Notes: a model not told the origin generated them from the sequence alone. 64,000 bases of DNA from an uncultured Actinomycetes bacterium (GCA_963716525.1 OY970315.1:3238154-3302153), one strand, 5' to 3'; shown: positions 3,634-55,019, counted from the stretch's first letter. Numbers and translations are program-made.

Positions 3634-4385
3634 ATGACCGACTACGCGCGGATCGGTGTCGGATACGCGGCCCGGCGGGTCGCCGACCGGCGCATCGAGG
3701 CGCAGCTGCATGGGGCGCTCGGCGACGCGCGCACCGTCGTGAACGTGGGCGCCGGCACCGGCAACTACGAGCCGGATGATCGGGTGGTGGTCGCGGTCGA
3801 GCCGTCGCCGACGATGCTGGCGCAGCGGACGGCGGGCGCCGCGCCGGCGGTCCGCGGGCGTGCCGAGGCACTGCCGTTCGGCGACGATGCGTTCGATGTC
3901 GCGCTCGCGGTGCTCACCGTGCACCACTGGTCGGACCGCGAGCGGGGCGTGCAGGAGATGGCGCGCGTGGCGCGCCGCATCGTCGTGCTGTTCTTCGAGC
4001 CGTCGATGGCCGAGCGCTTGTGGATGTACGACTACTGGCCCGAGGTCCGGCACCTGCCGAGCGAGTCCGATCCGCCCGGCGAGGCGTTCTTCCGGGCGCG
4101 GCTCGACGTCGAATCGGTGGACGTGGTCCCGGTACCGGGCGACTGCACCGACCATTTCGGCGCCGCGTACTGGCGCCGGCCCGAGGCGTATCTCGACGTC
4201 GACCTTGTGCAGGGCATGTCGTCGTTCGTGCAGCTCGACGCGGTTACGTTCCGCGCGGCGCCGAGCGCCTGCGGGCCGAGCTCGACTCGGGCACGTGGGA
4301 CGAGCGGTTCGGGCACCTGCGGGCCCTCGACGAGGTCGACCTCGGCTACCGAATCGTCACGGGCCGCGCGCCCGGGCCGCAGTAG
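3634..4385 (+). pseudogene. Class I SAM-dependent methyltransferase, frameshifted as sequenced (about 4252)
   Basis: The N-terminal part has the SAM motif VVNVGAGTGNYEP in the 3634 frame. The conserved C-terminal tail ERLRAELDSGTWDERFGHLRALDEVDLGYRIV is in the frame of track ORF 4020..4385. The 3634 frame turns into Arg/Ser-rich nonsense after about 4255. Confidence 0.7.
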
Positions 4386-4396
4386 CGTCGCCCGCC

Positions 4397-5272
4397 GTGC
4401 TGCGCCTCGTCCTGCCCAAAGGCTCGCTGGAACGCGCCACGTTGCAGCTGTTCGACGACGCTGATCTCGGCGTGAGCCGCGCGTCCGACGTCGACTACAA
4501 GGCGTCGATCGACGACCCGCGGGTGCGCGAGGTGCGCATCCTGCGCCCGCAGGAGATCGCCGCCTACGTGGAGCAGGGGATGTTCGACCTCGGCATCACC
4601 GCGCGCGACTGGATCGAGGAGACCGAATCCGACGTCGTCAGCCTCACGCAGCTGCGCTACTCGAAGGTGTCGGCCCAGCCGACGCGCATCGTGGTGGCCG
4701 TCGCCGCCGACTCCCCCTGGGCGTCGGCCACCGACATGCCGAACGGTGTGCGCGTGCACACCGAGTACGTGCGGTTGACGAAGCGGTTCTTCGCGGAGCG
4801 GGGCATCGACGCCGACGTCACGCTCTCGTACGGCGCCACCGAGGCGAAGATCCCCGAGATCGCCGACGCGATCGTGGAGCTCACCGAGACGGGCCGGGCG
4901 CTGCGGGCCGCGGGGCTGAAGGTGCTCGACACGATCGTCGTGTCGTACACGGAGCTGATCGCGAACCGGGCCGCGTACGACGATCCCGACAAGCGCCGGG
5001 CCATGGAGCAGCTCCAGGTGCTGCTCACCGGCGCGCTCGAGGCGCGCGGCCGGGTGCTCGTGAAGCTGAACATCGACGGGGCGAACCTGCAGCGCGCCAT
5101 CGCGTTGCTGCCGGCGTTGAAGTCGCCCACCGTCAGCAAGCTCTACGGCGAGGACGGTTACGCGATCGAGACGGTGGTGGCCAAGACCGACATCAACACG
5201 CTGATCCCGGCGCTGAAGGACGCGGGCGCCACCGGCATCCTCGAGCTGCCGATCAGCAAGATCGTGGCCTGA
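4397..5272 (+). CDS. hisG: ATP phosphoribosyltransferase (long form)
   Basis: VLRLVLPKGSLERATLQLF...YGATEAKIPEIADAIVELTETG plus the C-terminal regulatory domain. GTG 4397 is in frame with track ORF 3776..5272. Confidence 0.9.
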   Translation: MLRLVLPKGSLERATLQLFDDADLGVSRASDVDYKASIDDPRVREVRILRPQEIAAYVEQGMFDLGITARDWIEETESDVVSLTQLRYSKVSAQPTRIVVAVAADSPWASATDMPNGVRVHTEYVRLTKRFFAERGIDADVTLSYGATEAKIPEIADAIVELTETGRALRAAGLKVLDTIVVSYTELIANRAAYDDPDKRRAMEQLQVLLTGALEARGRVLVKLNIDGANLQRAIALLPALKSPTVSKLYGEDGYAIETVVAKTDINTLIPALKDAGATGILELPISKIVA

Positions 5273-5279
5273 CGCCGCC

Positions 5280-5474
5280 GTGGAAGGCGTGGTCACCGCG
5301 TTCGACGGGCACGTGGGGCGCGGGGTGGTGCGCGCTGGCGGGGCCGACTACGGCTTCCATTGCGTGCAGATCGCCGACGGCACGCGCACGATCGCGGTGG
5401 GCACCGCAGTCGAGTTCGACCTCGTTCCGGGCCCGCTCGGGCGCTGGGAAGCGGGCGCCATCCGCCCTTGCTAG
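5280..5474 (+). CDS. Small cold-shock-domain-like protein
   Basis: 64-aa ORF. GVVTAFDGHVGRGVVRAGGADYGFHCVQI...VEFDLVPGPLG follows the CspA-type OB-fold pattern only loosely. Confidence 0.45.
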   Translation: MEGVVTAFDGHVGRGVVRAGGADYGFHCVQIADGTRTIAVGTAVEFDLVPGPLGRWEAGAIRPC

Positions 5475-7077: not shown

Positions 7078-7441
7078 ATGGCACGCGTCAAGCGTTCCGT
7101 CAACAGCAAGAAGGGCCGCCGCAAGATCCTGGCTGCCGCGAAGGGTTACAACGGGTCGCGTAGCCGTCACCTGCGGGCGGCGAACGAGCAGGTGATGCAC
7201 TCGGGCAAGTATGCCTTCCGCGACCGCCGGGCGCGCAAGGGCGACATGCGCAAGCTCTGGATCGTGCGGATCAACGCGGCGTGCCGCGAGCACGACCTCA
7301 GCTACTCGCGGTTCATCGCGGGCCTGCCGCGCGGCCGAGGTCGACGTCGACCGCAAGATGCTCGCCGACCTTGCAGTGCGCGACCCGCAGGTGTTCGAGC
7401 AGCTCGTCGGATTGGCCCGCGGAGCGCTGACCGCAGCTTGA
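7078..7441 (+). pseudogene. rplT: 50S ribosomal protein L20, interrupted by a 1-nt insertion near 7327 (probably a sequence error)
   Basis: [30 protein letters not shown]...[10 protein letters not shown] is in the 7078 frame. The conserved end [37 protein letters not shown] is in the +1 frame (track ORF 7211..7441). Skipping one base at about 7327 restores a full-length L20. Confidence 0.9.
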
Positions 7442-8229
7442 CCGGGCCGGCGCTCGGGGCTCGCCACCGTGAGCTGACCCGCCTGCGTGTGCTCGCACGC
7501 GACCGTTCGGCGCGCGATGCCGCGGCGCTCGTGGTGATCGACGGTCCACGCGCCGTCGACGGCGTGCTCGCCCGCGGCGCGACGATCGAGGCGGTCTACG
7601 TCGACGGCACCGCGCGGGGCGCCGCGGCCCGCGTCGCGGGCCACGCCCGCGAGCGCGGTGTCACGGTCCGTGAGGTTGTGCCGGGGGCGCTCGCGCGGGC
7701 CGGCGAGGTGCGCACGAATGCCGGTGTGATCGCGCTCGCGCGCCGGCCGCCGGTACCCGGTCGCGACACGCTCGCGAGGGGCGCGTGCTGGCTCGTGTGC
7801 ACCGAGATCGGCGATCCCGGCAACCTCGGTGCCCTCGTACGTTCGGCCGAGGCGGCCGGCGCGGCGGGAATCGTCGTGGGGCGCGGTTCGGCCGATGTTT
7901 ACAATCCGAAGTCGGTCCACACGTCGGCCGGGGCCGTGTTCGGGATCACCGTGCTGGAGGACGACATCGTGACCGTGCTGAGCGACCTCGCAACGCGCGG
8001 TGTGCGGCGCGTCGGTGCCGTCGCCCACGGTGGTGTCGCTCCGTGGGATTGTGCCTTCGGCCCTCGGTTGGCGCTCGTGCTCGGTCACGAGACCCGTGGC
8101 ATCGAAGGGCTCGACGTCGACGAGCGGGTCTCGATCCCCATGGCGGGCGCGGCGGAGTCGTTGAACGTCGCCGCCGCCGCGACGGTGCTGCTGTTCGAGG
8201 TGGCGCGCCGCGCCGGGGTGGCGTCGTGA
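7438..8229 (+). CDS. TrmH/SpoU-family RNA 2'-O-methyltransferase
   Basis: TTG 7438 overlaps the L20 stop (TTGA). It carries SpoU motifs [30 protein letters not shown] and [22 protein letters not shown]. In the track it appears fused to L20 only because of the rplT frameshift. Confidence 0.8.
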
Positions 8230-9281: not shown

Positions 9282-9296
9282 CCCTGAGCAGATCGC

Positions 9297-11708
9297 ATGC
9301 GCGCACCGCTCTCCTGGATCCGTGACTTCACACCGCTCGACGGCTCGGTCGCCGGCGCGGCCGCGATCGCCGACGCGCTGAACCAGCTCGGCCTGGAGGT
9401 CGAGGCGATCGAGGAACCCGGCGCCGAGATCCGTGGGGTGGTGGCGGCACGGATCCTCGAGGTGTTGCCGCATCCCGACGCCGACAAGGTTCGGCTGGCC
9501 GACGTCGACTACGGCGAGGGTCAGCTCCGCGTGGTCTGCGGCGCACCGAACATCGAGGCGGGCATGGTCGTGCCCTTCGCTCGCGTCGGCGCGAGCCTGC
9601 CGGGCGGTTTCGAGATCAGCCGGCGCAAGATCCGTGGGATCGTGAGCGAAGGCATGCTGTGCTCGGCGCGCGAGCTCGGCCTCGGCGACGGCCACGACGG
9701 CATCCTCGCGCTCGACGCGGCGGCGGAGCTCGGTCGTGACGTGCGCGACGTGCTCGGTCTCGACGACACCATCTTCGACCTGTCGATCACCACGAACCGT
9801 CCCGACGCCATGAGCGTGATCGGCGTGGCGCGCGAGCTCGCCGCGCACTTCGGGCTGCCGTTCGAGGTGCCCGAAGCGCCGGCTCCGGCGCGCACCGCTC
9901 CACACGACGCCGACGGCATCACCGCGGTCGTGGAAGCCACCGAGCGTTGCCCGCGGCTCGTGCTGCGCGCCGCGCGCATCACGATGGGCCCCTCGCCCGA
10001 GTGGTTGCAGCGCCGGCTCGTGCTCGCGGGGATGCGTCCCATCAGCAACGTCGTCGACGTCACCAACTACGTGATGCTCGAGCGCTGCCGCCCGCTGCAC
10101 GCGTTCGACCTCGGCCGCCTCGCGGGTCGCGGGCTCGTGGTGCGGCTCGCCGCGGAAGGCGAACGCATGACCACCCTCGACGGTGTCGAGCGCGCCCTCA
10201 CGAGCAACGAGCTGCTGATCTGCGACGGCGAACGGCGCCCGCAGGCGATCGCCGGGATCATGGGCGGGCGCCACAGCGAGGTTCACGACGGCACCGGCGA
10301 GATCCTGCTGGAGTCGGCGTACTTCTCGCCCGGTGGCATCTCACGGTCGAGCAAGCGCCTCGGCCTGCGCTCGGAGGCGAGCGCGCGCTTCGAGCGCGGC
10401 GTCGACCCGAACGGCTGCGGCACCGGCGCCGACCGGGCCATCGAGCTGCTGGTCGAGGTCGCGGCGGCCGCGCCCTCCGACACTGCGATCGACGTGTATC
10501 CGGTGCCGGTCGAGCGGCCGCGCGTCACCGTGCGCACCGCACGGGTCAACGCGATCCTCGGCACGGAGCTCGACACGCCCACTGTGCGGCAACTGCTCGC
10601 GCCACTCGGTATCGAGGTGGAGCCGGGACCTGCGCCCGACACCACGGTTGCGCGCTGTCCCACGTGGCGGCCCGACCTCGAGCGCGAGATCGACCTCGTG
10701 GAGGAGGTGGCCCGCCGCCACGGGCTCGACAAGATCGCGCGCACCGTCGCGTCGGCGCCGCCGGGAAGCGTCGGGCGGCTCACGCCCCGCCAGCGCGAGC
10801 GGCGGCTCGTCGCCGACGTGCTCGTCGGCGCGGGCTACGCCGAGGCGGTCACGATGCCGCTCGTGGCACCGGCCGACGTCGTCGCGGTCGGCACACCACC
10901 CGAGCGCGCGGTACGCGTCGCCAACCCGCTGCGCGCCGAGGAGTCGGTGCTGCGCGTGAGCCTGCGGCCCGGCCTGCTCGCGGCCGTCGCCCGCAACACC
11001 GCCCGCGGCAACCCCGATCTCGCGCTGTTCGAGATGGGTGCGGTGTTCCTCGCACCGCAACCAGGCACGCTCCTGCCCACCGAGCGCACGACGGTGGCGG
11101 GCCTGCGCGCCGGGCAGCTGCGCGTGCCGCCCCGGCCCGATGCCCGGCCCGTGGAGGTCGCCGACGCCGTCGACGCGGTGCACGCGATCGCGGGCTCGCT
11201 CGGTCTGTGTTCCGTGCGCATCGTGCCCGACCCGACGCTCCCGGGGCTGCATCCGGCGCGCGGGGCGCGTGTCGTGGTCGACGGCGCGCCGGCCGGGGTG
11301 GTGGGGGAGTACGACCCGCACGTGCTGCGCCCGCTCGGCATCGGCGGTACCGTCGTCGGCTTCGAGCTCGATCTCGATTCGCTGCGCGCCGCGGCACGCA
11401 GCGCCGCGATCTTCCGGCCGGTGTCCACGTTCCCGCCGGCGAACATCGATCTCGCGTTCGTGGTGTCCACCGACGTCGTCGCCGCCGACGTCGCGGACAC
11501 GCTGCGAGCCGCGGGCGGCGAGCTGCTCGAGTCGGTCCGCGTGTTCGACGTGTACCGCTCCGACGAGCTCGGCCCGGATCGCGTGAGCCTCGCGTTCACG
11601 TTGCGGTTCCGTGCACCCGACCGCACGCTCACCGACGCCGAGATCGCCGAGCTGCGCGCCGCGTGCATCGCCGCGGCCGAACGTGACCACGGAGCCGGGC
11701 TCAGGTGA
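9297..11708 (+). CDS. pheT: Phenylalanine--tRNA ligase beta subunit
   Basis: 803-aa ORF with an N-terminal tRNA-binding domain (VVAARILEVLPHPDADKVRLADVDYG) followed by B3/4, B5 and FDX-ACB domains. Confidence 0.93.
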   Translation: MRAPLSWIRDFTPLDGSVAGAAAIADALNQLGLEVEAIEEPGAEIRGVVAARILEVLPHPDADKVRLADVDYGEGQLRVVCGAPNIEAGMVVPFARVGASLPGGFEISRRKIRGIVSEGMLCSARELGLGDGHDGILALDAAAELGRDVRDVLGLDDTIFDLSITTNRPDAMSVIGVARELAAHFGLPFEVPEAPAPARTAPHDADGITAVVEATERCPRLVLRAARITMGPSPEWLQRRLVLAGMRPISNVVDVTNYVMLERCRPLHAFDLGRLAGRGLVVRLAAEGERMTTLDGVERALTSNELLICDGERRPQAIAGIMGGRHSEVHDGTGEILLESAYFSPGGISRSSKRLGLRSEASARFERGVDPNGCGTGADRAIELLVEVAAAAPSDTAIDVYPVPVERPRVTVRTARVNAILGTELDTPTVRQLLAPLGIEVEPGPAPDTTVARCPTWRPDLEREIDLVEEVARRHGLDKIARTVASAPPGSVGRLTPRQRERRLVADVLVGAGYAEAVTMPLVAPADVVAVGTPPERAVRVANPLRAEESVLRVSLRPGLLAAVARNTARGNPDLALFEMGAVFLAPQPGTLLPTERTTVAGLRAGQLRVPPRPDARPVEVADAVDAVHAIAGSLGLCSVRIVPDPTLPGLHPARGARVVVDGAPAGVVGEYDPHVLRPLGIGGTVVGFELDLDSLRAAARSAAIFRPVSTFPPANIDLAFVVSTDVVAADVADTLRAAGGELLESVRVFDVYRSDELGPDRVSLAFTLRFRAPDRTLTDAEIAELRAACIAAAERDHGAGLR

Positions 11709-16204: not shown

Positions 16205-16218
16205 GGTGTTCCTTTCGG

Positions 16219-17184: not shown

Positions 17185-17194
17185 GCCCATCACC

Positions 17195-17400
17195 TCCGTC
17201 GGACCCCGTCTCCTCGAGGGTCCTGGCCGAGCCGCCTCACGGCGGCGTGTACGGCAGCGGCGCATGCACTGGCGCCGCCGAGAGGATGGGCATCCTGGCT
17301 CGCGTTCCCGGGGCCGTGCCTCGGTGACGCTTACAGTTGCGGGTCAGCGCCGGACTCGCACCGGCTTCCCCCGGCCCGTCGTGCGACGGACCCACACCAG
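17195..17400 (-). promoter_or_regulatory. Cobalamin (B12) riboswitch
   Basis: The minus strand reads GGGAAGCCGGTGCGAGTCCGGCGCTGACCCGCAACTGTAA (17370-17331), which is the conserved GGGAA..GGTG..TCC..GC.G.CCCGC.ACTGT core. A B12-box-like AGCCAGGATGCCC is at 17300-17288. GCCAGTG is at 17273-17267. A CCTCT anti-SD (17286-17282) could pair with the GGAGG SD (17197-17193). Confidence 0.8.
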
Positions 17401-17555
17401 GCCTCCGAGCCTGGCGTGATCACTCCGGCCCGGACACTACCGTGCCGCCGCCCGCGGTGCGTCACCGTCGACCTCCGTTGATCGGGATAGCGTGCGCGGC
17501 GCGACGCCGATCACGGCGCCGCCGGCGCGTCTGCGCCACGGGCAAGGGGGCATTC

Positions 17556-20309: not shown

Positions 20310-21016
20310 CGGGTCAGGCCAGGCCGCTCAGCTGGTACTGACCCGCGCGGGCCGTGGGCGAGGAAGGCGTGCGCCGCCACCACCGGGTCGGGCGTGGCGA
20401 CGAGCGCCGTGTAGGGGAGCGCGGCACCCCAACTCTGGTTCCAGAACGGGTCGTCGCGCCCTTCCATCGTCCACGGACCCACGTAGAGGTAGGGCTCGGC
20501 GACCGCGGCGTCGCCGGGCGACGCGCCGTAGTTCGCACGCGCGCCGGCGGCAACGTCGCCGAGGTCGACCGCGACGTCGAAGTGCTCGGGCCACAGCTGC
20601 AGCAGCGACGGGCCATCAGCGCGGTGCTCGGCGCGCCACGCGACGAGGACCTCGTGCGCGAACGCGAACCAGGCCGCAAGCGCGTGTGCCGCCGCGTCGT
20701 CGACGGTCAGGGGCGCGTCGGGCGCGCCGGACGTGGTCGGCGTGTACACGCCGGCGGGCGCACCGAGCGGCGTGTCGAGCAGCGCAGCCGCATCGCCGAG
20801 CGTGGTGACCGGCGCAACCGTGCGCTCGCCGTACTGCTCGCGCACCAGGCCCGCCGCGGTGAGCAGCCCGCGCCGGTCGTCGCCGTAGTACGGCGTCGCG
20901 ACGCCTTCGGGGTCGGCCCGCAGGCCGATCTTGCCGGTCGCCTCCCAGCGGGCGCGGGCGAGCACGTGCTCAGCGAGCGCATGCCAGCTCGTGCGCGTCG
21001 TCACGAACGCGTCCAT
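20231..21016 (-). CDS. Conserved hypothetical protein (3' end uncertain)
   Basis: ATG 21016 (MDAFVTTRTSWHALAEHVLARARWEATGKIGL...WPEHFDVAVD...YLYVGPW). As sequenced it overlaps the convergent secreted-protein gene by 79 nt. A +1 correction near 20340 would end it at 20314 instead. Confidence 0.5.
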   Translation of the reverse strand: MDAFVTTRTSWHALAEHVLARARWEATGKIGLRADPEGVATPYYGDDRRGLLTAAGLVREQYGERTVAPVTTLGDAAALLDTPLGAPAGVYTPTTSGAPDAPLTVDDAAAHALAAWFAFAHEVLVAWRAEHRADGPSLLQLWPEHFDVAVDLGDVAAGARANYGASPGDAAVAEPYLYVGPWTMEGRDDPFWNQSWGAALPYTALVATPDPVVAAHAFLAHGPRGSVPAERPGLTRQPATETAVPEPVCLENAPVSEPCFT

Positions 21017-21193
21017 GTCGGGGATCGCCGTGAGTGCCACGGGCCGCAGTCTGGCGGCCGTTCGGGCCCGCGTTCCACCCGTCGGTACCCTCGTTGGCGA
21101 TGCGCGTGACCGACCCGCTGCCCCGGCGAGCGCACCGACGACCCAGTCGCCGGCGACCGCGACACCACGCGCGCCGCTCGCATCGTCGCCGTC

Positions 21194-22966: not shown

Positions 22967-23726
22967 ATGGACCTCGAAGGACGCACTGCACTGGTCACCG
23001 GCGGAGGGCGCGGCATCGGCCGGGCCATCGCGCTCGCGCTCGCCGGCGACGGCGCCGACGTGGCCGTCAACTACCGCCGCGACGACGCGGCCGCGGAGGA
23101 GACCGCCGCCGCGATCCAGGCGCTCGGCCGGCGGGCGCGCGGCGTACCGCGCCGACGTCGCCGACTTCGAGCAGTGCGACACGATGGTGGGCGCCACGAT
23201 CGCCGAGCTCGGTCCGATCGACATCCTCGTGAACAATGCCGGTGTGGCGAGCCGCGGCGGCTCGGTGAAGAACACCGAGCCCGCCGAGGTGCACCGGCTG
23301 TTCGACACACACGCGTACGGCGCGTGGACGCTGTCGAAGCTGGTGATCCCGGGCATGCGCACGAAGCCGCGCGGCGACATCGTGATGATCTCGTCGGCGG
23401 CCACGCTCCACATGGCCGCGAACAGCGCGCCGTACAACATGGCCAAGGCCGCGCTCGAGGCGCTTGCGTGGACGCTCGCCAAGGAGGAGCGCAAGCACGG
23501 GATCCACGTGAACGTGGTCGCGCCCGGCCTCGTCGACACGGAGATGGGCCGGCGGCTCGTGAAGGGCGCGCTCGGCGTGGACGACATCCGCACCATGGAC
23601 GAGCGCGCCTCGTTCGGCCACGTGTGCACGCCCGAGGAGGTCGCCGAGGTGGTGCGCTGGGTCGTCTCGCCCGGCGCCTCCTACGTCACCGGCCAGCGCA
23701 TCGGCGTCGACGGCGGCAGCTTCTGA
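22967..23726 (+). pseudogene. FabG-like SDR oxidoreductase, 1-nt insertion near 23138
   Basis: MDLEGRTALVTGGGRGIGRAIALALAGDGADVAVNYRRDDAAAEETAAAIQALGRRA is in one frame. AAYRADVADFEQ...NNAGV...YNMAKAALEAL...VNVVAPGLVDTEM...VTGQRIGVDGGSF is in the +1 frame (tail of track ORF 22377..23726). Confidence 0.85.
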
Positions 23727-25011: not shown

Positions 25012-26242
25012 TCAGCGCTGGTGGCTCGGGTCCTTGGGCAGGCCCAGCACCCGTTCGCCCAGGATGTTGCGCATCACCTCGTCGGTGCCGCCGGCGACAC
25101 GGCCGCCGGGGAGGCCGAGGATCATCTCCGACCACGCGTAGGTGCCCCACTCGCCGCCGTCGGCGACGAGCCTCGGCCCGAGGAGGTCGCTCACGAGCTG
25201 GCCGAGCCGCTGGCCGTTGTTCGTGCCCGCGAGCTTGGCGATCGACAGCTCGGGGCCCGGCGTCTGACCGGCCTTGATCTTGCCGAGGGCACGCTGGTTC
25301 GTGAGCGACGCCGCCCGCGAGTGCACGTAGTAGCCCGCGATCTTCTGCCGCGCGACACGGTCATTGGCGAGGCCGTAGTGCTGGGCCATCTGCACGAGCC
25401 GGGCGATCGTTCGGTCACCGCCGCCCATACCTCCGCCGCCACCGGCACCGATCGCCATGCGCTCGTTCATGAGCGTCGTCGAGCGCGACACCCCAGCCCT
25501 CGTCGACGCCGCCGAGGCGGTGCGTGTCGGGCACCCGCACCTCGGTGAGGAACACCTCGTTGAACGACGCGCCGCCGGTCATCTGGCGCAGCGGACGCAC
25601 CTCGATGCCCGGGTCCTTCATGTCGATGAGGAACACCGTGAGGCCCTTGTGCTTGGGCTTGTCGGGCGACGTGCGGGTGATGATCTCGCCGATGTCGGAG
25701 AACTGCGCGCCCGACGTCCACACCTTCTGGCCGGTGAGCACCCATTCGTCGCCGTCGCGCACGGCGCGCGTCTGGATGCCCGCGAGGTCGGAGCCGGCGA
25801 CCGGCTCGGAGAACAGCTGGCAGCCGATGACGTCGCCGCGCCAGAGCGACCGGAGATAGCGCTCGCGCACTTCGGCGATGCCGTGCGCCAGGATCGTGGG
25901 CGCCACCATGCCGAGCCCGATGATGAACGGCGACTCGTCGGGCATCCGGTAGTGCGCCGTCAGCTCGCTGAACGCCCGCTGGAACTCCGGCGTGAGGCCG
26001 CGCCCGCCGTACTCGGTGGGCCCCGCGATCCAGCCGAAGCCCGCGTCGAACAGCGTGTTGCGCCACTGCTGGGCCCGCGCGACCAGGCTCTGCTCGGCCT
26101 CGTGGCTGCGCTCCTCGAACATGCCGACGCGGTCCGAGCCCTTGCCCCACTCGAACGCCGCCTCCTCGACCCGCCGCTCGCAGTGAGCGTCGAGGAAGTC
26201 GGTCGCCTCCTGGCGGAACGCTTCGAGCGTGATCGTGTTCAT
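25012..26242 (-). pseudogene. Acyl-CoA dehydrogenase, 1-nt insertion in a G-run near 25491-25494
   Basis: The N-terminal 250 aa from ATG 26242 (MNTITLEAF...CQLFSEPVAGSDLAGIQTRAVRDGDEWVLTGQKVWTSGA...GGVDEGWG) are in one frame. The C-terminal part VSRSTTLMNERMAIG...GTDEVMRNILGERVLGLP is in the next frame (track ORF 25012..25491). Confidence 0.85.
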
Positions 26243-26726: not shown

Positions 26727-27804
26727 ATGGATCGCGGTGGCGCGCCCTTCCCCCCGGCGCTCGCGGCGGTCGCGAGCCGTGCCGAGGCGCATGTGGCCGC
26801 GCTCCTCGACGCCCAGCGCGCGGTGTGGACACCGATCGACGGCCGGCTGTCCGCGCCGATCGACGCGGTCGCCGCGCTCGTGGCCGCGGGCGGCAAGCGG
26901 ATCCGCCCCGCGCTCTGCGCCGTGGCCTACGCCGGGGTTGGCGGCGAGGGCGGTATCGCCGCACCCGAGGTGGTCGCGGCCGGTGCCGCGCTCGAGCTGC
27001 TGCACACGTTCGCGCTCGTGCACGACGACGTGATGGACGGCTCGGAGACGCGCCGCGGCGTCGATGCCGTGCACCGGGCGTTCGTGCGGCGCCACGAGGA
27101 GTCCGAGTGGCACGGCGAATCGCGCCGCTTCGGCGAGGGCATGGCGATTCTCGTGGGCGACATCGCCTACGTGCTCGCCGACGTGCTGCTGCGCGACGCT
27201 CCACCCGCGGTGCATGCGTTGTGGGACGAGCTGCGCCTCGAGCTGTGCATCGGTCAGTCGCTCGATCTCATCGGTGCGGCCGAGGCCACATTTGAGCTCG
27301 AGCTCGCGCAGCGCATCGTGTCGTACAAGTCGGCGAAGTACACGGTCGAGCGACCGCTGCATCTCGGCGCGATGCTGGCCGGCGCCGGACCGTCGGTGGT
27401 CGCGGCGCTGTCGCGCGTGGGGCTCCCGCTCGGGCAGGCGTTCCAGCTGCGCGACGACGAGCTCGGCGTCTTCGGCGACGAGGTGATCACCGGCAAGCCG
27501 GTCGGCGACGATCTGCGCGAGGGCAAGCCCACCCCGATGCTCGCGATGGCACACGAGCGTGCCGCGCGCGTGCCCGGAGCGCCGCGCGTCCTCGCGATGG
27601 TGGGCACGCGCGATCTCGGTGAGCGCGAGATCAAGGAGATCCAGGACGTGCTCATCGACACCGGCGCGCTCGCCGCGATCGAGGACGAGATCGAGCGGCT
27701 CGTCACCGAGGCGGTCGTGGCGATCGACCGAGCGCCACTCGAGCGGGGCGCGGCCGCGCTGCTCACCGACCTCGCCGCGCTACATCGCGTGGCGCGACCA
27801 CTAG
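26727..27804 (+). pseudogene. Polyprenyl (geranylgeranyl) diphosphate synthase, 1-nt insertion near 27780 removes its stop
   Basis: The first and second Asp-rich motifs are present (LLHTFALVHDDVMDGSETRRG, GQAFQLRDDELGVFGD). The expected C-terminus YIAWRDH* is in the +1 frame with TAG at 27802-27804. As sequenced, the ORF reads through into the ABC ATPase. Confidence 0.8.
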
Positions 27805-28803
27805 TGGTGGCGCCCCACGAATTAGCGCGCGAGAGGAACGCGGCGCCGGCCGCGTCGGGTGCGGGCACCGCCCGGGATGACGCCGCGGTGGTGGCCGACC
27901 GGCTCGAGAAGCGCTACGGCGGCACCCGTGCGGTCGACGGGATGCACTTCGACGTCGCCCGGGGCGAGATCTTCGCGCTCGTCGGCCCGAACGGCGCCGG
28001 CAAGACCACGACGGTGGAGATGCTCGAGGGCTACCGCCGTCCCGATGCCGGCACGGTGCGCGTGCTCGGTCTCGACCCGATCGACGACGGGCGGGCGTTA
28101 CGGCCGCGCATCGGCGTGATGCTGCAGGAGGGCGGGCTCTATCCAGGCCTGCGGCCGCTCGAGGTGCTGCGCCTGTTCGCCGCCTTCTACGAGAATCCCG
28201 AAGCGCCCGAGGCGCTGCTCGACCGGGTGGGCCTGCTCGAGGCCCGGCGCACGGTCGTACGGCGGCTTTCGGGCGGCCAGAAGCAGCGCCTCTCGCTCGC
28301 CTGCGCCCTCGTCGGCCGGCCCGAGCTCGTGTTCCTCGACGAGCCGACCGCGGGCATGGATCCGCACGCCCGCGCCACCACCTGGGACCTCGTGCGCGAG
28401 CTGCCGCGCCCGGGGCACCACGATCGTGGTCACCACGCACCTTCTCGCCGAGGCCGAGCAACTCTGCGACCGGGTCGCGATCGTCGTGGCCGGCCGGGTC
28501 GCCGCGCTCGGCACGCCGCGCGAGCTGATGCGAAGCGCCCGGGTGCATCGCGTCACGTTCACCGCGTCCGCGACGCTCGACACGCACGAGCTCGCCCGCG
28601 CGCTCGGTGTCGACGACACGGCCGTCGCGTCGACCGGTCGGGAAGGCGAATACGAGGTGCACACGCCGGGCACGCCGGCGCTCGTCGCCGCGCTCGCGAA
28701 CCATCTGTGTGCGATCGACGTGCGCCTCGGTTCCCTGCAGGCCAACGAGCAGTCGCTCGAGGCGGTGTTCCTGCAGATCACCGCGGAGGACGCAACGCAA
28801 TGA
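27804..28803 (+). pseudogene. ABC transporter ATP-binding protein (ABC-2/DrrA-like), 1-nt insertion near 28404
   Basis: Walker A GPNGAGKTT, signature LSGGQKQR and Walker B LVFLDEPTAGMD are in one frame. RARGTTIVVTTHLLAEAEQLCDRVAIV... is in the +1 frame (track ORF 28426..28803). The start is ambiguous (GTG 27804, 27807 or 27888). Confidence 0.85.
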
Positions 28804-34466: not shown

Positions 34467-34523
34467 GCCGACAAGGTATCCCGACGTGCTCGGTATCCTG
34501 CAGCAATCGGCACGATCGCGCAA

Positions 34524-35958
34524 CTGATTCACGATCTCGACACAGAGGTCGGTGCCGGCGCCGCGCGCGCCGAGCCGCTCGAGCTTGCGCTGTACGCCCG
34601 CGACGCTGGTGTCAGCTCGGGCGCGGCCGCGGCGGTGTGCTTCCCCCGTGACGCCCGCGAGGTCGCGGCGTGCGTGCGCGCGGCGCGCCGCCACGGTGTG
34701 CCGTTCGTGGCGCGCGGGAGCGGCACGGGCCTCGCCGGCGGCGCGACGCCGGTCGACGAGCCGCTCGTGATCGTGACCACCCGGATGAACCGGGTCCTCG
34801 CCGTCGACGCCGCCGCGCGCACCGCGGTCGTGGAGCCGGGCGTGCTGAACCTCGACCTCTCGCGGGCCGTCGCCGGGCTCGGCCTGCACTACGCGCCCGA
34901 TCCGTCGTCGCAGGCCGCCTGCACGATCGGGGGCAACGTCGCCACCAACGCCGGTGGGCCCCACTGCCTGGCGTCGGGCGTCACCAGCGCGCACGTGCTC
35001 GCGGTCGACGCGGTGCTCGCCGACGGCTCCGAGGCCCGTCTCGGCGGCGTGGTGCCCGACACGCCCGGCTACGACCTGCGCGGCGTGTTCGTGGGCAGCG
35101 AGGGAACCATGGGCATCGCCACCGCGGTCACGGTACGGCTGTTGCCCGCACCCCCGGCGGTGCGCACGCTCTTGTGCGACTTCACGAGCATCGAGGACGC
35201 GGCGGCCACGGTGAGCGGGATCATCGCGGCCGGGCTCGTGCCCGCGGCGCTGGAGATGATGGACGCGGAGATCACGAGAGCGGTGGAAGACTTCGTGGGC
35301 GCGGGCTTCCCTCGGGACGCCGCGGCGGTGCTGCTCGTGGAGGTCGACGGGCTTGCGGGCGGCGTCGCTTCCGAGGTCGACGTGGTCGACCGGGTGGCGC
35401 GCGCGACACGGCGCACGCGCGGTGCGCGTGGCCCGCGACGCGGCCGAGCGCGACCTGCTGTGGAAGGGGCGGAAGTCGGCCTTCGGCGCGATCGCCCGAA
35501 TCGCGCCCGACTACTACCTGCACGACGCGGTGGTGCCCCGCACCAAGCTCGTCGACGTGCTGCGAACGGTGTACGCGGTCGCGGCCGAGCAGCGGCTCAC
35601 GATGATGAACGTCTTCCATGCCGGCGACGGCAACCTCCACCCGCTGATCGTGTTCGACGGCCGCGAGCCCCACGTGTGGCCGCGCGTGCACGACGCCGGC
35701 TCGCGCATCCTCGCCGCGTGCATCGAGGCCGGGGGCGTGCTGTCGGGCGAGCACGGCGTGGGGCTGGAGAAGCGCGACCTCATGCCGCTGCAGTTCTCGG
35801 CCGACGACCTCGCCGCGCAGGGCCGGCTCGCCGACGCGTTCGATCCCGACGGTGTGGCGAACCCGCAGAAGGTGCTGCCGGCCGGCTCCCGGTGCGGGGA
35901 GGTCGTCCGAGGGCGGCAGCGGCGCGACGGCGCGGCCGCAGCCGGCGCATGGATCTGA
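34524..35958 (+). pseudogene. glcD: Glycolate oxidase FAD-linked subunit GlcD, 1-nt insertion near 35406; start unresolved
   Basis: The FAD-binding PCMH domain (VCFPRDAREVAACVRAARRHGVPFVARGSGTGLAGG) is in one frame. The C-terminal part HGARAVRVARDAAERDLLWKGRK...NVFHAGDGNLHPLI...GEHGVGLEK is in the +1 frame (track ORF 35353..35958). There is no in-frame ATG/GTG/TTG between 34467 and about 34630. Confidence 0.85.
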
Positions 35959-36987
35959 TGATCGCCAGCGCGCTGACCCGGGCCGCGGTGCCCGTGGTCG
36001 ACGCGCTGCGCGCCACCGGCGATGCCGTCGTGATGCGCGGCGCGGGTACGCACGCCGAGGTCGGCAACCCGGTCGTCGCCACGCGCACGCGCGAGGTGCG
36101 CATCCCTGCTGGTGTCGTCACGTACGACCCCGACGACATGACGGTGACGGTGCTCGCGGGAACCACGGTCGCGCGAGCTCGACGCGGTGCTCGCCGCGGC
36201 CGGCCAGGAGGTGCCGCTCGATCCGCGCGATCGGGTCGCCACGGTCGGCGGCGTGCTCGCGGCGGGTCTGTCGGGCATCCGCCGCCTGCGCCACGGACCT
36301 GTGCGCGACACGCTGCTCGAGGTCAGGTTCGTCGACGGCCGGGGCACGCTCGTGAAGAGCGGCGGCCCGGTGGTGAAGAACGTCACCGGCTACGACCTGC
36401 CGCGGCTGCTCGTGGGATCGCTCGGCACGCTCGGCGCGCTGGTGCAGGTGACGTTGCGCTGCCGGCCCCGTGCCGCGCACACGGCGTGGTACCGCGTCGA
36501 GCGCGACGACGCCGATGCGGTGCGCGCCGGGCTCTACCGCCCGTCGTCGGTGTTGTTCGACGGCCACGCCACGCACGTGCTGCTCGAAGGGCACACGCCC
36601 GACCTGGCCGATCAGGCCGCGGCCGCGCAGCTCGGTGCCTCGGCCGGCGGCGCCCCCGCGTTGCCCGACGGTCCGCACCGTGGTCGCATCAGTGTGCCGC
36701 CGGGTCATGTCGCCCCGGCCGGTCGCGCGCTGTCGGCCGTGGCGCCCGCGGTGCGCTGGTGCGCCGAGCTCGGCGTGGGCACGGTGCACGTCGCGTGCGA
36801 CGATGCCGGCGACCTCGAGCGCGCACGGGACGTGGCCACCGCGTGCGACGGCTGGCTGCTGCGCGAGGCCGGCGCCCCGGGCGTCGACGGCTTCGGCATC
36901 ATGCTGCCCAACTCCGGATTGACCGCCCGGGTGAAGGCCGCCTTCGACCCCGACGGCCGCTTCGCGCCAGGCCGGTTGCCGCAGTGA
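35949..36987 (+). pseudogene. glcE: Glycolate oxidase FAD-binding subunit GlcE, 1-nt insertion near 36174
   Basis: MDLMIASALT...VVMRGAGTHAEVG...YDPDDMTVTVLAGTTVA is in one frame. ELDAVLAAAGQEVPLDP...VKNVTGYDLPRLLVGSLGTLG... is in the +1 frame (track ORF 36187..36987). Confidence 0.8.
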
Positions 36988-40239: not shown

Positions 40240-40264
40240 GGCGCACCCATCTCCGACAATCACA

Positions 40265-40297
40265 CATATCAATCACTTTACAATCTTGTCAGATATG
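40265..40297. promoter_or_regulatory. Candidate ArsR operator / divergent promoter region
   Basis: The most AT-rich stretch in the region. CATATC (40265-40270) and GATATG (40292-40297) form an inverted repeat. The flanks are imperfectly extended (ATATCAATCA / TGTCAGATAT). Confidence 0.25.
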
Positions 40298-42613: not shown

Positions 42614-45035
42614 CTACGGCAAAACCGGAAGCGCGGCCGGTTGGCGGCCGATCGTGACCGGCACCGGGCTCCCGGCGTCGCGGGCCAGCAGGCCGTCGTC
42701 GTCCACCGGGCGGAGGCGCCGGCCGACCGTCTGCGTGCGGCCGTACAGCGTGGTGCGCTGGGCGAGCGTGCGCCCGAGCGGCTCGACGATCGCCGCGAAC
42801 TGCGTGTCGTCGAGCTCCTGGCCGTGGTGCGCGCCAGCAGCGCGCGAGATGTTCTCGTCCATCAGCGTGCCACCGAGATCGTTGGCGCCGGCCCGCAGGA
42901 TCTGCTGCGCGCCGCGCACCCCGCACTTCACCCACGACGCCTGCACGTTGTCGATGAGGCCGCGATAGGCGATGCGGCCGACCGCATGCATCAGCAGCAC
43001 CTCACGGAACGTCGGCCCGGGACGCGCCTTGTGCTGCAAGAAGATCGGCGTGGCCATGTGCACGAAGGGCAGCGGCACGAACTCCGTGAACCCTCCGGTC
43101 TCCTTCTGCAGCGCCCGGGTCCGCAACAGATGGTTCGCGACGTGGTGCGGACGTTCGACCGAGCCGAACATGATCGTGATGTTCGAGCGCAGACCGATCG
43201 AGTGCGCCGCCCGATGGGCCTCGAGCCATTCCTCGGTGTTCACCTTGTCGGGGCAGAGGATCGCGCGCACGTCGTCGTCGAGAACCTCGGCGGCGGTGCC
43301 CGGCAGCGTGGCCAGGCCGGCCTCACGCAGCGTCGCGAGATAGTCGGGCAGCGGCATGCCGAGCCGGCGCGCGCCCTCGGTGACCTCGAGCGCGGTGAAG
43401 CCGTGCACGTGGATGGTGGGCGCCACCGCCTTGATCGCGACCACCACCTGCCGGTAGAAGTCGCCGTCGAAGTCGGGGTGGATGCCGCCCTGCAGGCACA
43501 CCTCGGTGGCGCCGCAGTCGACCGCCTCGACCACACGCCGCTGGATCTCGTCGAGGTCGAGCAGATACGGATTGCCGCGCAAGTTCAACGACAGCGGACC
43601 CTTGCTGAACGCGCAGAACTTGCACTTGAACGTGCACACGTTCGTGTAGTTGATGTTGCGGTTGCGGACGAACGTGACCTCGTCACCGACGGTCTCGGCG
43701 CGCAGCTCGTCGGCGAGCGCGCACACTGCCTGCACGTCGGTGCCGCGTGCCTCGAGCAGCGTGACGATCTCGCGATGGCCGACCTCCTGGCCGGCGCGCA
43801 CTCCGTCGACCACCTCGCGCACCCGCCCCGACACCGCACGCGGGCGCGAGCCGCGGGCGAGCGGCGGTGGACACGTCGATCACCGGCGGTGGCGGGTCGT
43901 CGCCGCCCGAGGCCCAATGGTCGTCGCGCGCGAGGCCCTCACTGTCGCTGCGCACCAGCACGCTGTTCGCGAGCTCGGGCTCGATCCAGTGCGCCGCGTC
44001 GCGCACGAACTCGGGGTGCACGGTGAGGCGGGGCGCGAGCACATGGCCGGCCGCCTCGGTGGCGGCGCGCAGCGTGTCGAGCGCCGGCCAGGGCCGTTCG
44101 GGATTGACGTGGTCGACGGTCACCGGCGACACGCCGCCCCAGTCGTCGATGCCGGCGGCGAGCAGCGCGGCGAGCTCGTCGACGTCGGACAGGTTCGGCG
44201 GGGCCTGGAGATGGATGTCGGGCGGCAGGATCAGGCGCGCGGCGGCGACCGACCAGAGGTACTCCTCGCGGTCGCACGGCGGCACGTCGCGCATCGCGGT
44301 GCCCAGCTTGGGCAGGAAGTTCTGGACGATCACCTCCTGCACGTGGCCGTACTCCGCGTGCGAGCGCGCGATCGCCACGAGCGCGTCGACGCGCTCGGCA
44401 CGTGTCTCGCCGATACCCACGAGGATGCCCGTGGTGAACGGCACGCGCGCGCGTCCGGCGGCGTCGAGCGTGGCGAGCCGGCGCGCCGCGGTCTTGTCGG
44501 GCGCGCGGTGGTGCGGACCGCCCGGCTCGTGGAGGCGGTCGGCGAGGCTCTCGAGCATCATGCCCTGGCTCGGCGACCAGCGGCGCAGGCGGCGCAGCTG
44601 GTGCTCGTCGAGCGCGCCGGGGTTGGCGTGGGGCAGGAGGCCGGTCTCCTCCACCACCAGGCGCGCCATCGCGACGAGGTAGTCGACGGTGTCGGCGTAA
44701 CCCCGGTCGGCGAGCCAATCGGCCGCCTGCGTGTAGCGCACCTCCGGGGCTTCGCCCAGCGTGAACAGCACCTCGTGGCAGCCCATCGCCGCGCCGCGCC
44801 GGGCGATCCCGAGCACGTCGTCGGGCGTGAGGTAGGGCGACTCGATGCGCGCCGGCGCCTTGGCGAAGGTGCAGTAGCCGCAGCGGTCGCGGCACAGCAT
44901 CGTGAGCGGCACGAAGACCTTGGGTGAGAACGTGACCCGTGCACCGAACGCGTGGTCGCGCACGGCGGCCGCCTCGGGCATCAGCACCGCGGCGGGATGG
45001 TCGACGAGCTCCCGGAACTGCGAAGCGGTGAGCAT
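42614..45035 (-). pseudogene. fbiC: FO synthase FbiC (fused CofG-CofH, F420 biosynthesis), frameshift in the interdomain linker (about 43840-43875)
   Basis: The CofG half starts at ATG 45035 (radical-SAM CRDRCGYCTF). The CofH half is in the next frame (CTFKCKFCAF). The CofG frame continues as an Arg-rich nonsense tail to 43683. The CofH frame has a TGA just upstream of GTG 43834. Confidence 0.85.
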
Positions 45036-48098: not shown

Positions 48099-48099
48099 C

Positions 48100-52160: not shown

Positions 52161-52205
52161 CGAACCACCCTCGGATTCGTCTCTCGGTGAGCTGGTGTAC
52201 CCAGC

Positions 52206-53396: not shown

Positions 53397-53473
53397 GCTG
53401 GATCAGGCTTCGACGACCACAATGCGTGGCTGAAGGTGGAGTTCCCGCACGGGGGCGAGCCCTTCGTCACGCC

Positions 53474-53875
53474 TCAGGTAACCACGGTGAGTGGTGTGAC
53501 GACGCTGGATCCGGTTTCGGTGATCGTGCAGCGAGCCTCGACCGTGCCGGCCTCGGGGAACGTCAGCTCGGGCCGCACGAGCTGGTAGAAGAACTTGCCC
53601 GGCGGCTGGATCGTGACCGGTGCCCGATGATGGCCGATCTCCTCGCCGTCGGAGCCGGAATCGGCCTCGCGCACGAAGGCGACGTCGAGCGTTCCCGTGC
53701 GCGCCGCGTCAGCCTCGGCCCGCAGCAGCACGAGGAGGTGCGGCGTGACCAGCGCGGGGAACTCCTGGGCCGCCGTCGAGAAGTAGGCGCCGGTGATGTC
53801 GATCTTCGTCGGCCCACCCTCGTACTCGCGGCGGAACTCGACGTTGTCGATCCACAGTGCGGCGACGATCTGCAT
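53474..53875 (-). CDS. Hypothetical protein
   Basis: 133-aa ORF with protein-like composition. No family is recognised. Confidence 0.4.
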   Translation of the reverse strand: MQIVAALWIDNVEFRREYEGGPTKIDITGAYFSTAAQEFPALVTPHLLVLLRAEADAARTGTLDVAFVREADSGSDGEEIGHHRAPVTIQPPGKFFYQLVRPELTFPEAGTVEARCTITETGSSVVTPLTVVT

Positions 53876-53887
53876 CGGACGCGGACG

Positions 53888-55019
53888 CTACCGCGCGCCG
53901 CGTTCGCCACCCACCCAGACGCCCACGACCGGCGAACTGCCGTGCGCCCCCGTCGTGTCGATCGCGACGATGTCGGCGCGCCGCCCGGGTTCGATGCGAC
54001 CGCGCGTGCCGTCGCCCAGCAGATCGCAGGCGTAGCCCGACGTGAGCATCGCGACCCGCGCCGGGTCCACGCCGAGATCCAGCACGTTGCGTGCGGCGCC
54101 GGCGAGGGTGACCGCCGAGCCCGCGAGCGTGCCGTCGCGCAGGTACACCGCTCCGTCGCGTGCGACGATCTCGAGCCCACCCGACGTGCCCGCGCCCGGT
54201 GCGACCGCGTCACTCACGAGCACGACGTGCTCCGTTGCCGCGAGCGCGAGCTGTACCACCGGCGCGCCGACGTGGTGCAGGTCGGCGATCAGGCTCGGCG
54301 TGAGTCGCCCGTCGACGAGCGCGGCCTCCGCGAGACCGGGATCGCGATGGTGCATCGGGCGCATCCCGTTGAAGAGATGGGTGACGACGCGCGCGCCGGC
54401 GTCGGCGGCGGCGACTGCCTCGGCGAACGAACAGGTCGAGTGGCCGAGCGCGACGATCACGCCGCGTTCGGCGAGCAGGCGGGTGCCCACGAGACCGGGG
54501 TCGGCCTCGGGAGCGAGCGTCACCATGCGGACGAGGTCGCCGTGCCGGTCGAGCAGTCGCTCCAGCCACGCGAGGTCGACCGTTCGCAACAGATCGCGCG
54601 GGTGCGCGCCCGGCGCGCCGCCGAGAAACGGTCCCTCGAGGTGCACGCCGAGCAGTGCGCACGACCCATCGGGACGATCCGCGACGAGGTCGCGGCCGCG
54701 GCGAACGCGGTCGAGTATCTCGTCGTAGGCGTCGAGCGGCGCGGTGACGATCGTGGGCAGGCAGGCCGTCGTGCCGCACGACGCCAGCTCGTCGAGCGCC
54801 CGCGCGATCTCGTGCTCGTTGCGCGCGGGTCGCGAAGTCGATGTCGCCGGCACCGTTCACCTGCAGGTCGACGAACCCGGGGAGCAGCACCGCCCCCGAA
54901 AGGTCGACGAAATCGCCACATGCGTCGTTTGGGACCGCTATATGGGCCCCAAACGACGCATGCGCGATCGTGGGGCCGTCGAACTGGAGCCAGCCGTTGG
55001 CGCCGGCGACGGTGGTCAC
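53888..55019 (-). pseudogene. nagA: N-acetylglucosamine-6-phosphate deacetylase NagA, 1-nt insertion near 54828 plus an in-frame 45-nt palindromic-element insertion
   Basis: The N-terminus from GTG 55019 (VTTVAGANGWLQFDGPTIA[HASFGAHIAVPNDAC]GDFVDLSGAVLLPGFVDLQVNGAGDIDF) is in one frame. ARNEHEIARALDEL...GVHLEGPF...ALGHS...THLFNGM... is in the next frame (track ORF 53888..54853). Confidence 0.8.
54919..54962. repeat. 44-bp palindromic element, copy 2 (inside the nagA reading frame, inverted relative to copy 1)
   Basis: CATGCGTCGTTTGGG (54919-54933), the loop ACCGCTATATGGGC, then CCCAAACGACGCATG (54948-54962). The arms are identical to copy 1. The loop matches the reverse complement of the copy-1 loop at 11 of 14 positions. 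Confidence 0.95.

Follow-up and report, generated by a model that had tools for sequence, protein, structure and literature searches.

Assemblies made from long reads are known to carry indel loads comparable to, or higher than, the load described here, with the same splitting of genes (PMC11649196, PMC8692599, PMC8574707). In genomes of high G+C content, the classical errors of PacBio RSII are deletions in G/C homopolymers (PMC8574707), and those of ONT have also been described chiefly as homopolymer deletions (PMC11649196). The window that we analysed, a stretch of 64 kb of DNA from an uncultured bacterium, resembles the residual consensus indels of these platforms in that its frame breaks involve single bases, split, fuse or truncate genes, recur about once per few kilobases and very probably lie in a contig of megabase scale; they are also systematic, while affecting a minority of the susceptible sites (PMC8574707, PMC11649196, PMC8692599). 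They depart from the reported signature, mainly G/C homopolymer deletions, as they are insertions at CGCGC runs and none of the ten sites lies in a homopolymer of four or more. Errors produced at methylation motifs in nanopore sequencing share with them a short, partly palindromic motif (a CGCG/GCGC core) acting on either strand, but in the portion of that literature considered here they are mostly substitutions, whereas those of the window are indels. By analogy, one may speculate that the latter are linked to modification of the DNA.

Two biological systems also call for comparison. Decay of the Mycobacterium leprae type similarly leaves many genes frameshifted, but there a gene collects several lesions, along with stops and deletions, its codon bias is lost and essential genes are spared; none of this is seen here. 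Programmed +1 frameshifting of the prfB type likewise makes the full-length product dependent on reading past one extra nucleotide, but at a site of that type, which orthologues share, a slippery codon is paired with a rare codon or a stop in frame. The orthologues of the genes in the window are without the extra base, and the sites in the window show nothing comparable.

Ten genes with a displaced reading frame

Ten genes of the window had been noted in the first-pass annotation as broken by single-base shifts, and coding potential, Pfam analysis of repaired proteins and the alignment of orthologues bear this out. All ten change frame and, except in the acyl-CoA dehydrogenase (ACAD), they do so on the place first proposed or no more than a few bases away. 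A Viterbi path through codon usage changes frame, with no stop or start boundary, at 4255, 7333, 23126, 25474, 28402, 35404, 36172, 43860 and 54827. The orthologues of relatives align as two HSPs in adjacent frames, meeting at 4254/4254, 7326/7325, 25481/25479, 28415/28399, 35390/35407, 36170/36175 and 43863/43870. Removing or adding one base yields, at the ten sites, full-length proteins that align to their orthologues free of gaps (the site in fbiC being placed only within 28 nt), and a single Pfam domain match spans the junction in the repaired L20, SDR, GlcD, GlcE and NagA.

The reference assemblies are independent of the window: GCA_038202885.1 (loci L081, L084 and L087) and JGI metagenome contigs (L082, L083, L085 and L086), the sources of these relatives being three independent short-read assemblies. 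The orthologues are single intact ORFs, of 250 aa for the methyltransferase, 120 aa for L20, 408 aa for ACAD, 358 aa for the polyprenyl synthase (IDS), 308 aa for the ABC ATPase, 345 aa for GlcE, 794 aa for FbiC and 374 aa for NagA. Scanning GTDB representatives brought up distant relatives only, with at most 62% identity (polyprenyl synthase), which served for protein alignments and were too distant for comparison of DNA. Throughout the loci retained (L001-L087) all orthologues are uninterrupted at the shift sites; the comparison with orthologous loci that had been proposed at the outset finds every orthologue examined intact, with one base fewer at the +1 sites.

A single site lacks a base. 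It lies at 4252..4257 on the plus strand, TTC[CGCGCG]GCG, in a gene for a class I SAM methyltransferase (restored as 3634-4385, 250 aa) whose deposited ORF bears a 69-residue out-of-frame tail. The orthologue in L085 (250 aa) matches the window in two HSPs, one in frame 1 (residues 1-207, nucleotides 3634-4254) and one in frame 3 (residues 208-250, nucleotides 4254-4382), with nucleotide 4254 common to both; in the DNA alignment a 1-nt gap falls in the window, which has 5 nt where homologues have two codons. In rplT, which codes for ribosomal protein L20 (plus strand; restored gene 7078-7441, 120 aa), an extra C at 7327..7328, CTG[C]CGCGCGG, breaks the protein at residue 83 of 120, and the deposited ORF (7078-8229, 383 aa) continues into the SpoU/TrmH methylase gene that follows. 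Residues 1-83 of L20 from L085 match 7078-7326 with 100% identity (83/83 residues) and residues 83-120 match 7325-7438 in the next frame with 89%; the extra C is absent from the DNA of L085 and L087, and the repaired protein covers positions 1-107 of the 107 of the Pfam Ribosomal_L20 profile in a single stretch.

The FabG-like SDR (plus strand; restored gene 22967-23726, 252 aa) has one extra base within 23137..23144, GGGC[GCGCGGCG]TAC. There, the alignments of 12 distant homologous loci break frame at about 23130, with ungapped junction columns; after repair adh_short and adh_short_C2 each cross the junction in a single stretch, and the proteins of L002 and L061 align in one HSP over residues 1-252 or 3-252, at 74-76%. 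The ACAD gene (minus strand; restored gene 25012-26242, 409 aa) has its extra base at 25480..25481, GCGCTC[G]ACG on the minus strand. Its frameshift, as first proposed, is real, but the position given for it, a G-run at 25491-25494, has to be abandoned: in orthologues DEGWGVAL still belongs to the upstream frame, which places the shift outside the run, 10-14 nt away from it, and this disposes of the run as its cause. The orthologue in L081 (408 aa) pairs with 26239-25481 over its residues 3-255 and, in the next frame, with 25479-25015 over residues 256-408, so that precisely one nucleotide, 25480, stays unpaired; the shift was also examined by alignment of the DNA. Homologues read DEGWGVALTTLMNER at this junction, which falls on the boundary between the middle and C-terminal domains in the Pfam analysis of the repaired protein.

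The extra base of the IDS gene (plus strand, 27776..27780, CTCGC[CGCGC]TAC; restored gene 26727-27804, 358 aa) sits eight codons ahead of the stop, and the ORF as deposited is fused to that of the ABC ATPase (26727-28886, 719 aa), overshooting the end of the orthologue by 361 codons. The C-terminus of the relatives reads ...LA.Y[VI]AWRD(H)*, tblastn matches extend to residues 357-358 of the repaired protein (358 aa), and the DNA of L081 has GACCT-GGCGCGCTACATCGCCTGGCGCGACCACTAG where the window has GACCTCGCCGCGCTACATCGCGTGGCGCGACCACTAG. The ABC transporter ATPase itself (plus strand; restored gene about 27891-28803) carries one extra C at 28404..28405, CTG[C]CGCGCC, a shift also examined by DNA alignment with relatives. 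Its orthologue in L081 (308 aa) is matched in frame 3 over residues 1-171 and in frame 1 over residues 166-299, the two parts joining at 28399-28415; the alignments of 53 homologous ORFs break at this site, the junction columns are gap-free (VRELRARGTT versus VRDLRARGVT) and an AAA_21 match spans the junction of the repaired protein.

In glcD (plus strand; restored gene 34506-35958) the extra base falls in 35402..35406, GGCGCG[CGCGA]CAC: residues 10-260 of the L081 protein match 34638-35390 and residues 266-435 match 35407-35916 in the next frame, the DNA alignment has one gap each in L081, L082 and L083, and the repaired protein covers positions 2-248 of the 248 of the FAD-oxidase_C profile in a single stretch. 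The seemingly missing start of this gene, once counted as a possible frameshift, loses that interpretation, several relatives likewise having ATC or ATT there. Its neighbour glcE (plus strand; restored gene 35949-36987, 345 aa) has one extra base at 36170..36174, GGT[CGCGC]GAG; the L081 protein covers 35958-36170 with its residues 1-71 and, in the next frame, 36175-36984 with residues 73-345, and four nucleotides remain for one residue. After repair, the FAD_binding_4 match is unbroken, and the DNA of L083 reads GTCGC-CGAG.

The fbiC gene (minus strand; restored gene 42614-45035) has a net +1 in the linker between its CofG-like and CofH-like parts, at 43835..43862, an interval which includes CTCGCGCC. 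FbiC of L081 is one ORF; its first part (residues 1-391) aligns in frame -3 and ends at 43863, its second (residues 381-794) in frame -1, beginning at 43870; the window has 28 nt in place of three codons of the orthologue, in a linker of variable length. Translation of a CofH-like protein of its own could begin at a GTG, 43834, in which case this lesion could be real and tolerated. Finally, nagA (minus strand; restored gene 53888-55025, 378 aa) has one extra base at 54827..54829, GCGACC[C]GCGCGC on the minus strand. The orthologue search recovered a single HSP, the one that begins at 54826 and lies downstream; the junction is gap-free against P0122-P0125 (DFATARNEHEIA versus DFATATDEHAIA), the DNA of L084 shows one gap, and the repaired protein covers positions 1-343 of the 345 of the Amidohydro_1 profile in a single stretch.

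Overall, nine sites carry an extra base (+1) and one, at 4252-4257, lacks a base (-1), a 9:1 bias (binomial P = 0.02) in keeping with what had been noted, mostly 1-nt insertions with a sole deletion near 4252. The description of each break as a clean switch of frame also holds: every affected gene has exactly one single-base lesion, with no stops and no larger deletions, frame-specific codon bias and coding potential persist in the shifted frame beyond the lesions, and identity downstream and upstream of the shift is similar at most junctions (88.5 versus 85.8% in ACAD, 89 versus 90% in GlcD, 79 versus 86% in FbiC), the exception being the ABC ATPase, which falls from 84% upstream to 68% downstream. 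Broken genes number 10 of roughly 60 in the 64 kb, about one gene in six. Over roughly 0-11, 16.7-38 and 40-64 kb, comparison with orthologues brought up no other recurrent break of frame; the ORFs checked in 11.7-15.5 kb have complete Pfam domains, and 15.2-20.3 kb gave no homologue and no convincing Pfam match. At 32090, antisense ORFs suggested a change of frame that proved to be an ordinary GTGA gene overlap, and a premature stop in glcF, hinted at by BLAST extension, turned out to be a chance similarity in a variable tail.

Further candidate sites and sequence context

Other places may belong to the same family. At the N-terminus of ctaA (haem A synthase; 21100..21146, plus strand), the frame that contains the first transmembrane segment (TM1) has no ATG, GTG or TTG before 21194, itself within TM1; ATG 21100 falls in the adjacent frame, and homologues begin about 20 residues ahead of TM1, in a region that is not conserved. 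A further +1 shift is plausible there. Equally plausible is an indel at the 3' end of a conserved hypothetical gene, 20231-21016 (minus strand, candidate interval 20335..20353). Its only complete homologue, in L061, ends exactly at the limit of similarity, position 20351, where the window reads GGCCCGCGCGGG, followed by 40 extra codons into the convergent gene; both alternative frames stop after 8-12 more codons. Lastly, two small genes, separate in a relative (79 and 86 aa), appear merged in a 173-aa ORF, 60031-60552 (plus strand, candidate interval 60240..60253). The orthologue of the first ends ...EIRRI*, the window reads EIRRVVGRIGHRMESIV..., and a TAG in the adjacent frame lies two codons on, within CCGGCGCGTCGTAG; this hints faintly at an additional frameshift near 60245, in intergenic DNA highly divergent from that of the relative.

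Whether indels cluster in particular contexts, a check put forward with the initial reading, could be addressed within the window, where the sites are enriched at CGCGC/GCGCG. Eight of the nine localised sites overlap or touch such a run (0.96 expected, P = 1.2e-7, the motif having been chosen post hoc), and six of the nine overlap CCGCGC/GCGCGG (0.37 expected, P = 3.6e-7, again for a motif chosen post hoc); as the motif was noticed in the same data as those on which it was tested, these P-values are exploratory. Sites 7327 and 28404 share the identical string CTGCCGCGC. Only about 1% of the runs of this type in the window are affected, so that the error would be favoured by its context and not determined by it. 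Homopolymers of three or more coincide with one site in ten; with none of the ten in a run of four or more, a homopolymer explanation was rejected, and in the absence of this classical association the error mode is not a textbook one. Local G+C in 51-nt windows at the sites ranges from the 25th to the 98th percentile and is not consistently extreme, so that drop-out of short-read polishing in patches of extreme G+C is unsupported. Insertions adjoining alternating CG runs form an atypical signature, and this is a counter-point to a reading in terms of sequencing error.

Origin of the extra bases

From the pattern of the sequence, the frame breaks are in all likelihood context-specific errors of consensus building or base calling, foreign to the DNA of the organism. 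Starting from the lesions as observed, with their direction, their context and the intact genes of relatives, we infer a technical cause. Very probably the window belongs to a single-contig, long-read assembly of 4.59 Mb, from an uncultured member of the Acidimicrobiia with 72% G+C. Base calling, consensus building or polishing would add a base (at least nine times) or drop one (once) in or next to short stretches of alternating CGCGC/GCGCG, most commonly by duplicating the C before CGCGC into CCGCGC (GCGCGG on the other strand). Two public proteins, P0121 and P0241, are identical to broken ORFs of the window, each being found on a single contig of 4,594,535 bp (NCBI/ENA), and it is the size of this contig that points to long reads; P0121, of 321 aa, represents the truncated nagA ORF downstream of the break. 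Extrapolation from the window would give several hundred broken genes genome-wide. L20 is essential in Escherichia coli. The preference for systematic indel error, such as an assembly from unpolished long reads or at low coverage would contain, over mass pseudogenisation, already voiced in the first-pass annotation, is favoured by the single lesions, the hit in L20, the 9:1 bias and the CGCGC context.

It is improbable that the breaks are of mixed origin, errors for the most part, with the fbiC shift, and possibly the deletion in the methyltransferase, genuine. Many non-actinobacterial organisms have CofG and CofH as two proteins, the linker of FbiC differs in length by 19 nt from that of the orthologue, and the conserved VSG... 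is exactly where GTG 43834 opens the frame of the CofH-like part. But FbiC is fused in the closest relative (794 aa), the 28-nt interval has the same CGCGC context as the other sites, and a genuine split would leave the CofG-like ORF with about 60 out-of-frame codons.

Genuine and very recent pseudogenisation, in a hypermutator or decaying lineage where the extra bases would be genomic and the genes dead, is more improbable still. The deposited sequence does carry the bases, recent events would not yet display downstream decay, and the 1-nt deletion and the shift in the fbiC linker could individually be tolerated. Against this, the broken genes, about one in six, include rplT; each has one lesion and no stops or larger deletions, and all relatives have these genes intact. 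The bias toward insertion does not fit either, nor does the context: homopolymer runs are the main seat of spontaneous +/-1 indels, but none of the ten sites lies in a run of four or more and eight of nine lie at CGCGC runs.

That the extra bases be real and bypassed by programmed +1 frameshifting, quadruplet decoding or correction at the level of RNA is hardly credible: the lesions have a common context (even an identical string at 7327 and 28404) and all sites but one require the same +1 correction, but the shift is not conserved, the orthologues examined being uninterrupted with one base fewer, no shifty codon occupies the P-site (after CUG or CUC, +1 re-pairing is impossible), several 0-frames lack a nearby stop (that of rplT is open for some 300 codons into the next gene), no single quadruplet codon or slippery site fits all sites, one of which requires -1, and transcriptional slippage would meet G+C-only contexts, with no A/T runs. 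There is next to no chance, in particular, that motif-directed +1 recoding acts on many housekeeping genes in this lineage of the Acidimicrobiia, with the bases beside the CGCGC runs genuine.

Consequences for annotation and for the organism

With consensus error as the preferred reading, the earlier warning that automated annotation would be misled stands, as witnessed by the fusion of L20 to a methylase, that of the polyprenyl synthase to the ABC ATPase and the truncation of NagA. About one gene in six of the window is mis-annotated, and at least two artefactual proteins (P0121 and P0241) have already entered public protein collections. Other oddities from the same contig should be checked first against indel error at CGCGC runs, and insertions at CCGCGC/GCGCGG offer a concrete target for polishing. 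If the context holds genome-wide, it would point to an error specific to a platform, a model or a modification in very GC-rich genomes. For the organism itself, the biological weight of these frame breaks is small, because its genes are almost certainly intact.

Frame breaks in ten genes

The frame breaks listed by the first-pass annotation, which had read them as systematic indel error, were confirmed by coding potential, by Pfam matches to the repaired proteins and by orthologue alignments. The window has a G+C content of 72% and carries dense genes on both strands; a seven-state Viterbi path, based on codon log-odds trained on eleven long ORFs, switched frame away from any stop or start boundary at 4255, 7333, 23126, 25474, 28402, 35404, 36172, 43860 and 54827, essentially the positions noted before, which had not been used in the run. 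The switch at 4255 was −1 and all others +1. Ten proteins were then built by removing one base each (adding one at 4252) and submitted to a Pfam scan. Single matches crossed the junction for L20 (profile positions 1–107 of 107), FAD-oxidase_C (2–248 of 248) and Amidohydro_1 (1–343 of 345), as well as for adh_short, FAD_binding_4 and, in the ABC ATPase, AAA_21; the junction of the acyl-CoA dehydrogenase (ACAD) lies at the boundary of its middle and C-terminal domains. Those of the methyltransferase (MT), the polyprenyl synthase and fbiC fall outside Pfam domains, so that homologues were required.

The nearest relatives in genome collections are Acidimicrobiia MAGs, with a polyprenyl synthase only about 60% identical. 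Aligned with homologues from 80 loci of other genomes, the repaired short-chain dehydrogenase (SDR), ACAD, polyprenyl synthase, ABC ATPase, GlcD and GlcE each gave one HSP, at 60–78% identity and without gapped columns at any junction. A blind scan of the 6,982 ORFs of these loci against the unrepaired window returned recurrent two-frame matches at about 23130 (12 ORFs), 25470 (37), 28410 (53), 36180 (16) and 35400 (31, plus a few in adjacent bins), the remaining signals being singletons; a five-ORF signal at about 32100 was rejected as a normal GTGA gene overlap.

Protein search provided closer relatives: three loci from contigs JBBREP010000014 and JBBREP010000011 of the short-read MAG GCA_038202885.1, three from JGI metagenome contigs and one from a Logan contig, syntenic with 0–11 kb and 24–64 kb of the window at 63–100% protein identity. 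The syntenic region of GCA_038202885.1 lacks a SulP/STAS sulfate-permease gene (38210–39889, minus strand) and a 128-aa ORF that stand in the window between glcF and a LOG-family gene (38210–40272). Against orthologues from these closest relatives, the unrepaired window gave pairs of abutting HSPs: 3634–4254 then 4254–4382 for MT, where the one shared nucleotide implies a deletion; 7078–7326 (100% identity) then 7325–7438 (89%) for L20; 26239–25481 then 25479–25015 for ACAD; frame 3 to 28415 and frame 1 from 28399 for the ABC ATPase; to 35390 then from 35407 for GlcD; to 36170 then from 36175 for GlcE; down to 43863 then from 43870 for FbiC; and, for NagA, the downstream HSP only, from 54826. 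Nucleotide alignments with the relatives place a single gap opposite each insertion site, as in the polyprenyl synthase tail, which reads ...CTGGCGCGCTACATCGCCTGGCGCGACCACTAG in a relative, and in every relative these genes each form one ORF, as long as the repaired version.

No further break appeared in any other window gene with an orthologue, and the ORFs tested within 11.7–15.5 kb hold complete Pfam domains. Between 15.2 and 20.3 kb we found neither homologues nor convincing Pfam evidence: ORFs 16219–17265 (minus strand, 348 aa) and 17337–20309 (plus strand, 990 aa) matched nothing in Pfam and nothing in the fetched loci. Over 16185–16687 the antisense frame is favoured by the coding-potential path. 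The stretch 16185–20309 could conceal more errors, invisible to homology.

Sequence context and less certain sites

With each site delimited by the bases that can be removed to obtain an orthologue-consistent reading, eight of the nine localisable sites overlap a CGCGC/GCGCG pentamer, against 0.96 expected from the 6.9% of window bases that these pentamers cover (Poisson-binomial P = 1.2e-7), and six overlap CCGCGC/GCGCGG against 0.37 (P = 3.6e-7); both P-values are exploratory, the motif having first been noticed in the same data, and the enrichment in CG runs is nonetheless large. For ACAD the distance to a pentamer is 2 nt. In four to six cases (rplT, ABC, NagA, probably the polyprenyl synthase and SDR) a duplicated C immediately 5′ of CGCGC provides the extra base, and the sole deletion has the same CCGCGCGG context. 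None of the sites lies in a homopolymer of four or more, and one lies in a run of three. Insertions outnumber deletions 9:1 (P = 0.02). The window contains more than 1,200 such pentamers, only about 1% of them affected. With its extra C the rplT site (7322–7331) is GCCGCGCGGC, a perfect 10-nt palindrome.

The ACAD frameshift stands, while its proposed site, the G-run at 25491–25494, does not: the shift is at 25480–25481 (minus strand, GCGCTC[G]ACG), and the G-run is uninvolved since orthologues retain DEGWGVAL in the upstream frame. Nor is the missing glcD start, once counted as a possible frameshift, a lesion of this kind. The conserved N-terminus has no ATG, GTG or TTG; ATC stands at 34506, and several relatives (L081, near 9905–9925, L082, L083, L047 and L029) likewise have ATC or ATT there, directly following an in-frame stop; in one distant homologue the codon is ATG. 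Gene callers shortened GlcD of the three closest relatives to internal GTGs (429–451 aa). The start (window 34494–34520, also L081, L082, L083) may be non-canonical, perhaps leaderless. A conserved TA.CCT hexamer (TATCCT, 34494–34499) lies 6 nt upstream of the ATC.

The ctaA N-terminus and a gene's 3′ end at about 20340 are further possible indel sites, beyond proof because neither gene end is conserved; the latter coincides exactly with CCCGCGCGGG, likewise palindromic, where the sole complete homologue ends. A weaker candidate is about 60245, near CCGGCGCG: in GCA_038202885.1 two separate small genes, of 79 and 86 aa and each in its own frame, correspond to the 173-aa ORF at 60031–60552, which could reflect another indel or a real fusion.

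Origin of the breaks

Two of the broken ORFs have entered public databases as artefactual proteins in singleton clusters: P0121, a truncated NagA of 321 aa (53888–54853, minus strand), and P0241, an MT of 276 aa with a 69-residue out-of-frame tail (3634–4464, plus strand). Each is recorded (NCBI, ENA) on one contig of 4,594,535 bp, a single piece that suggests long-read assembly and that is absent from the GTDB representatives scanned.

Of all the lesions, only the shift in the fbiC linker could reflect a true separation of CofG-like from CofH-like proteins, the second frame being opened by a GTG at 43834, but FbiC is fused in the closest relative. Real, recent pseudogenisation is unlikely, as it would have struck an essential gene, left single lesions biased in context and direction, and would imply hundreds of dead genes. 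Recoding of real extra bases is all but excluded: orthologues do not conserve the shift, neither a slippery sequence nor a stop signal marks the sites, and they share no quadruplet that would fit.

The breaks are best explained as consensus errors, very probably an artefact of the deposited sequence, and the original reading is supported. Each gene carries one single-base lesion, with downstream conservation and codon bias mostly undiminished; about one-sixth of the genes are broken, a ribosomal protein among them; the insertion bias and the common non-homopolymer context point the same way, and the orthologues are intact in every relative, with one base fewer at the insertion sites. Published long-read assemblies show a like consequence for genes: in a high-GC 2.56-Mb genome 798 differences led to 292 added CDS (PMC11649196), and ORF fragmentation is widespread in nanopore soil MAGs, Acidimicrobiia included (PMC8692599). 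The signature nevertheless matches neither the G/C homopolymer deletions described for PacBio RSII in genomes of high GC (PMC8574707) nor the deletions in homopolymers commonly attributed to ONT, so that the platform cannot be named; a reasonable guess would be an error at CG-alternating motifs that depends on base modification or is specific to one model. The biological interest of these breaks is low, and their weight is practical, for the annotation of this contig.
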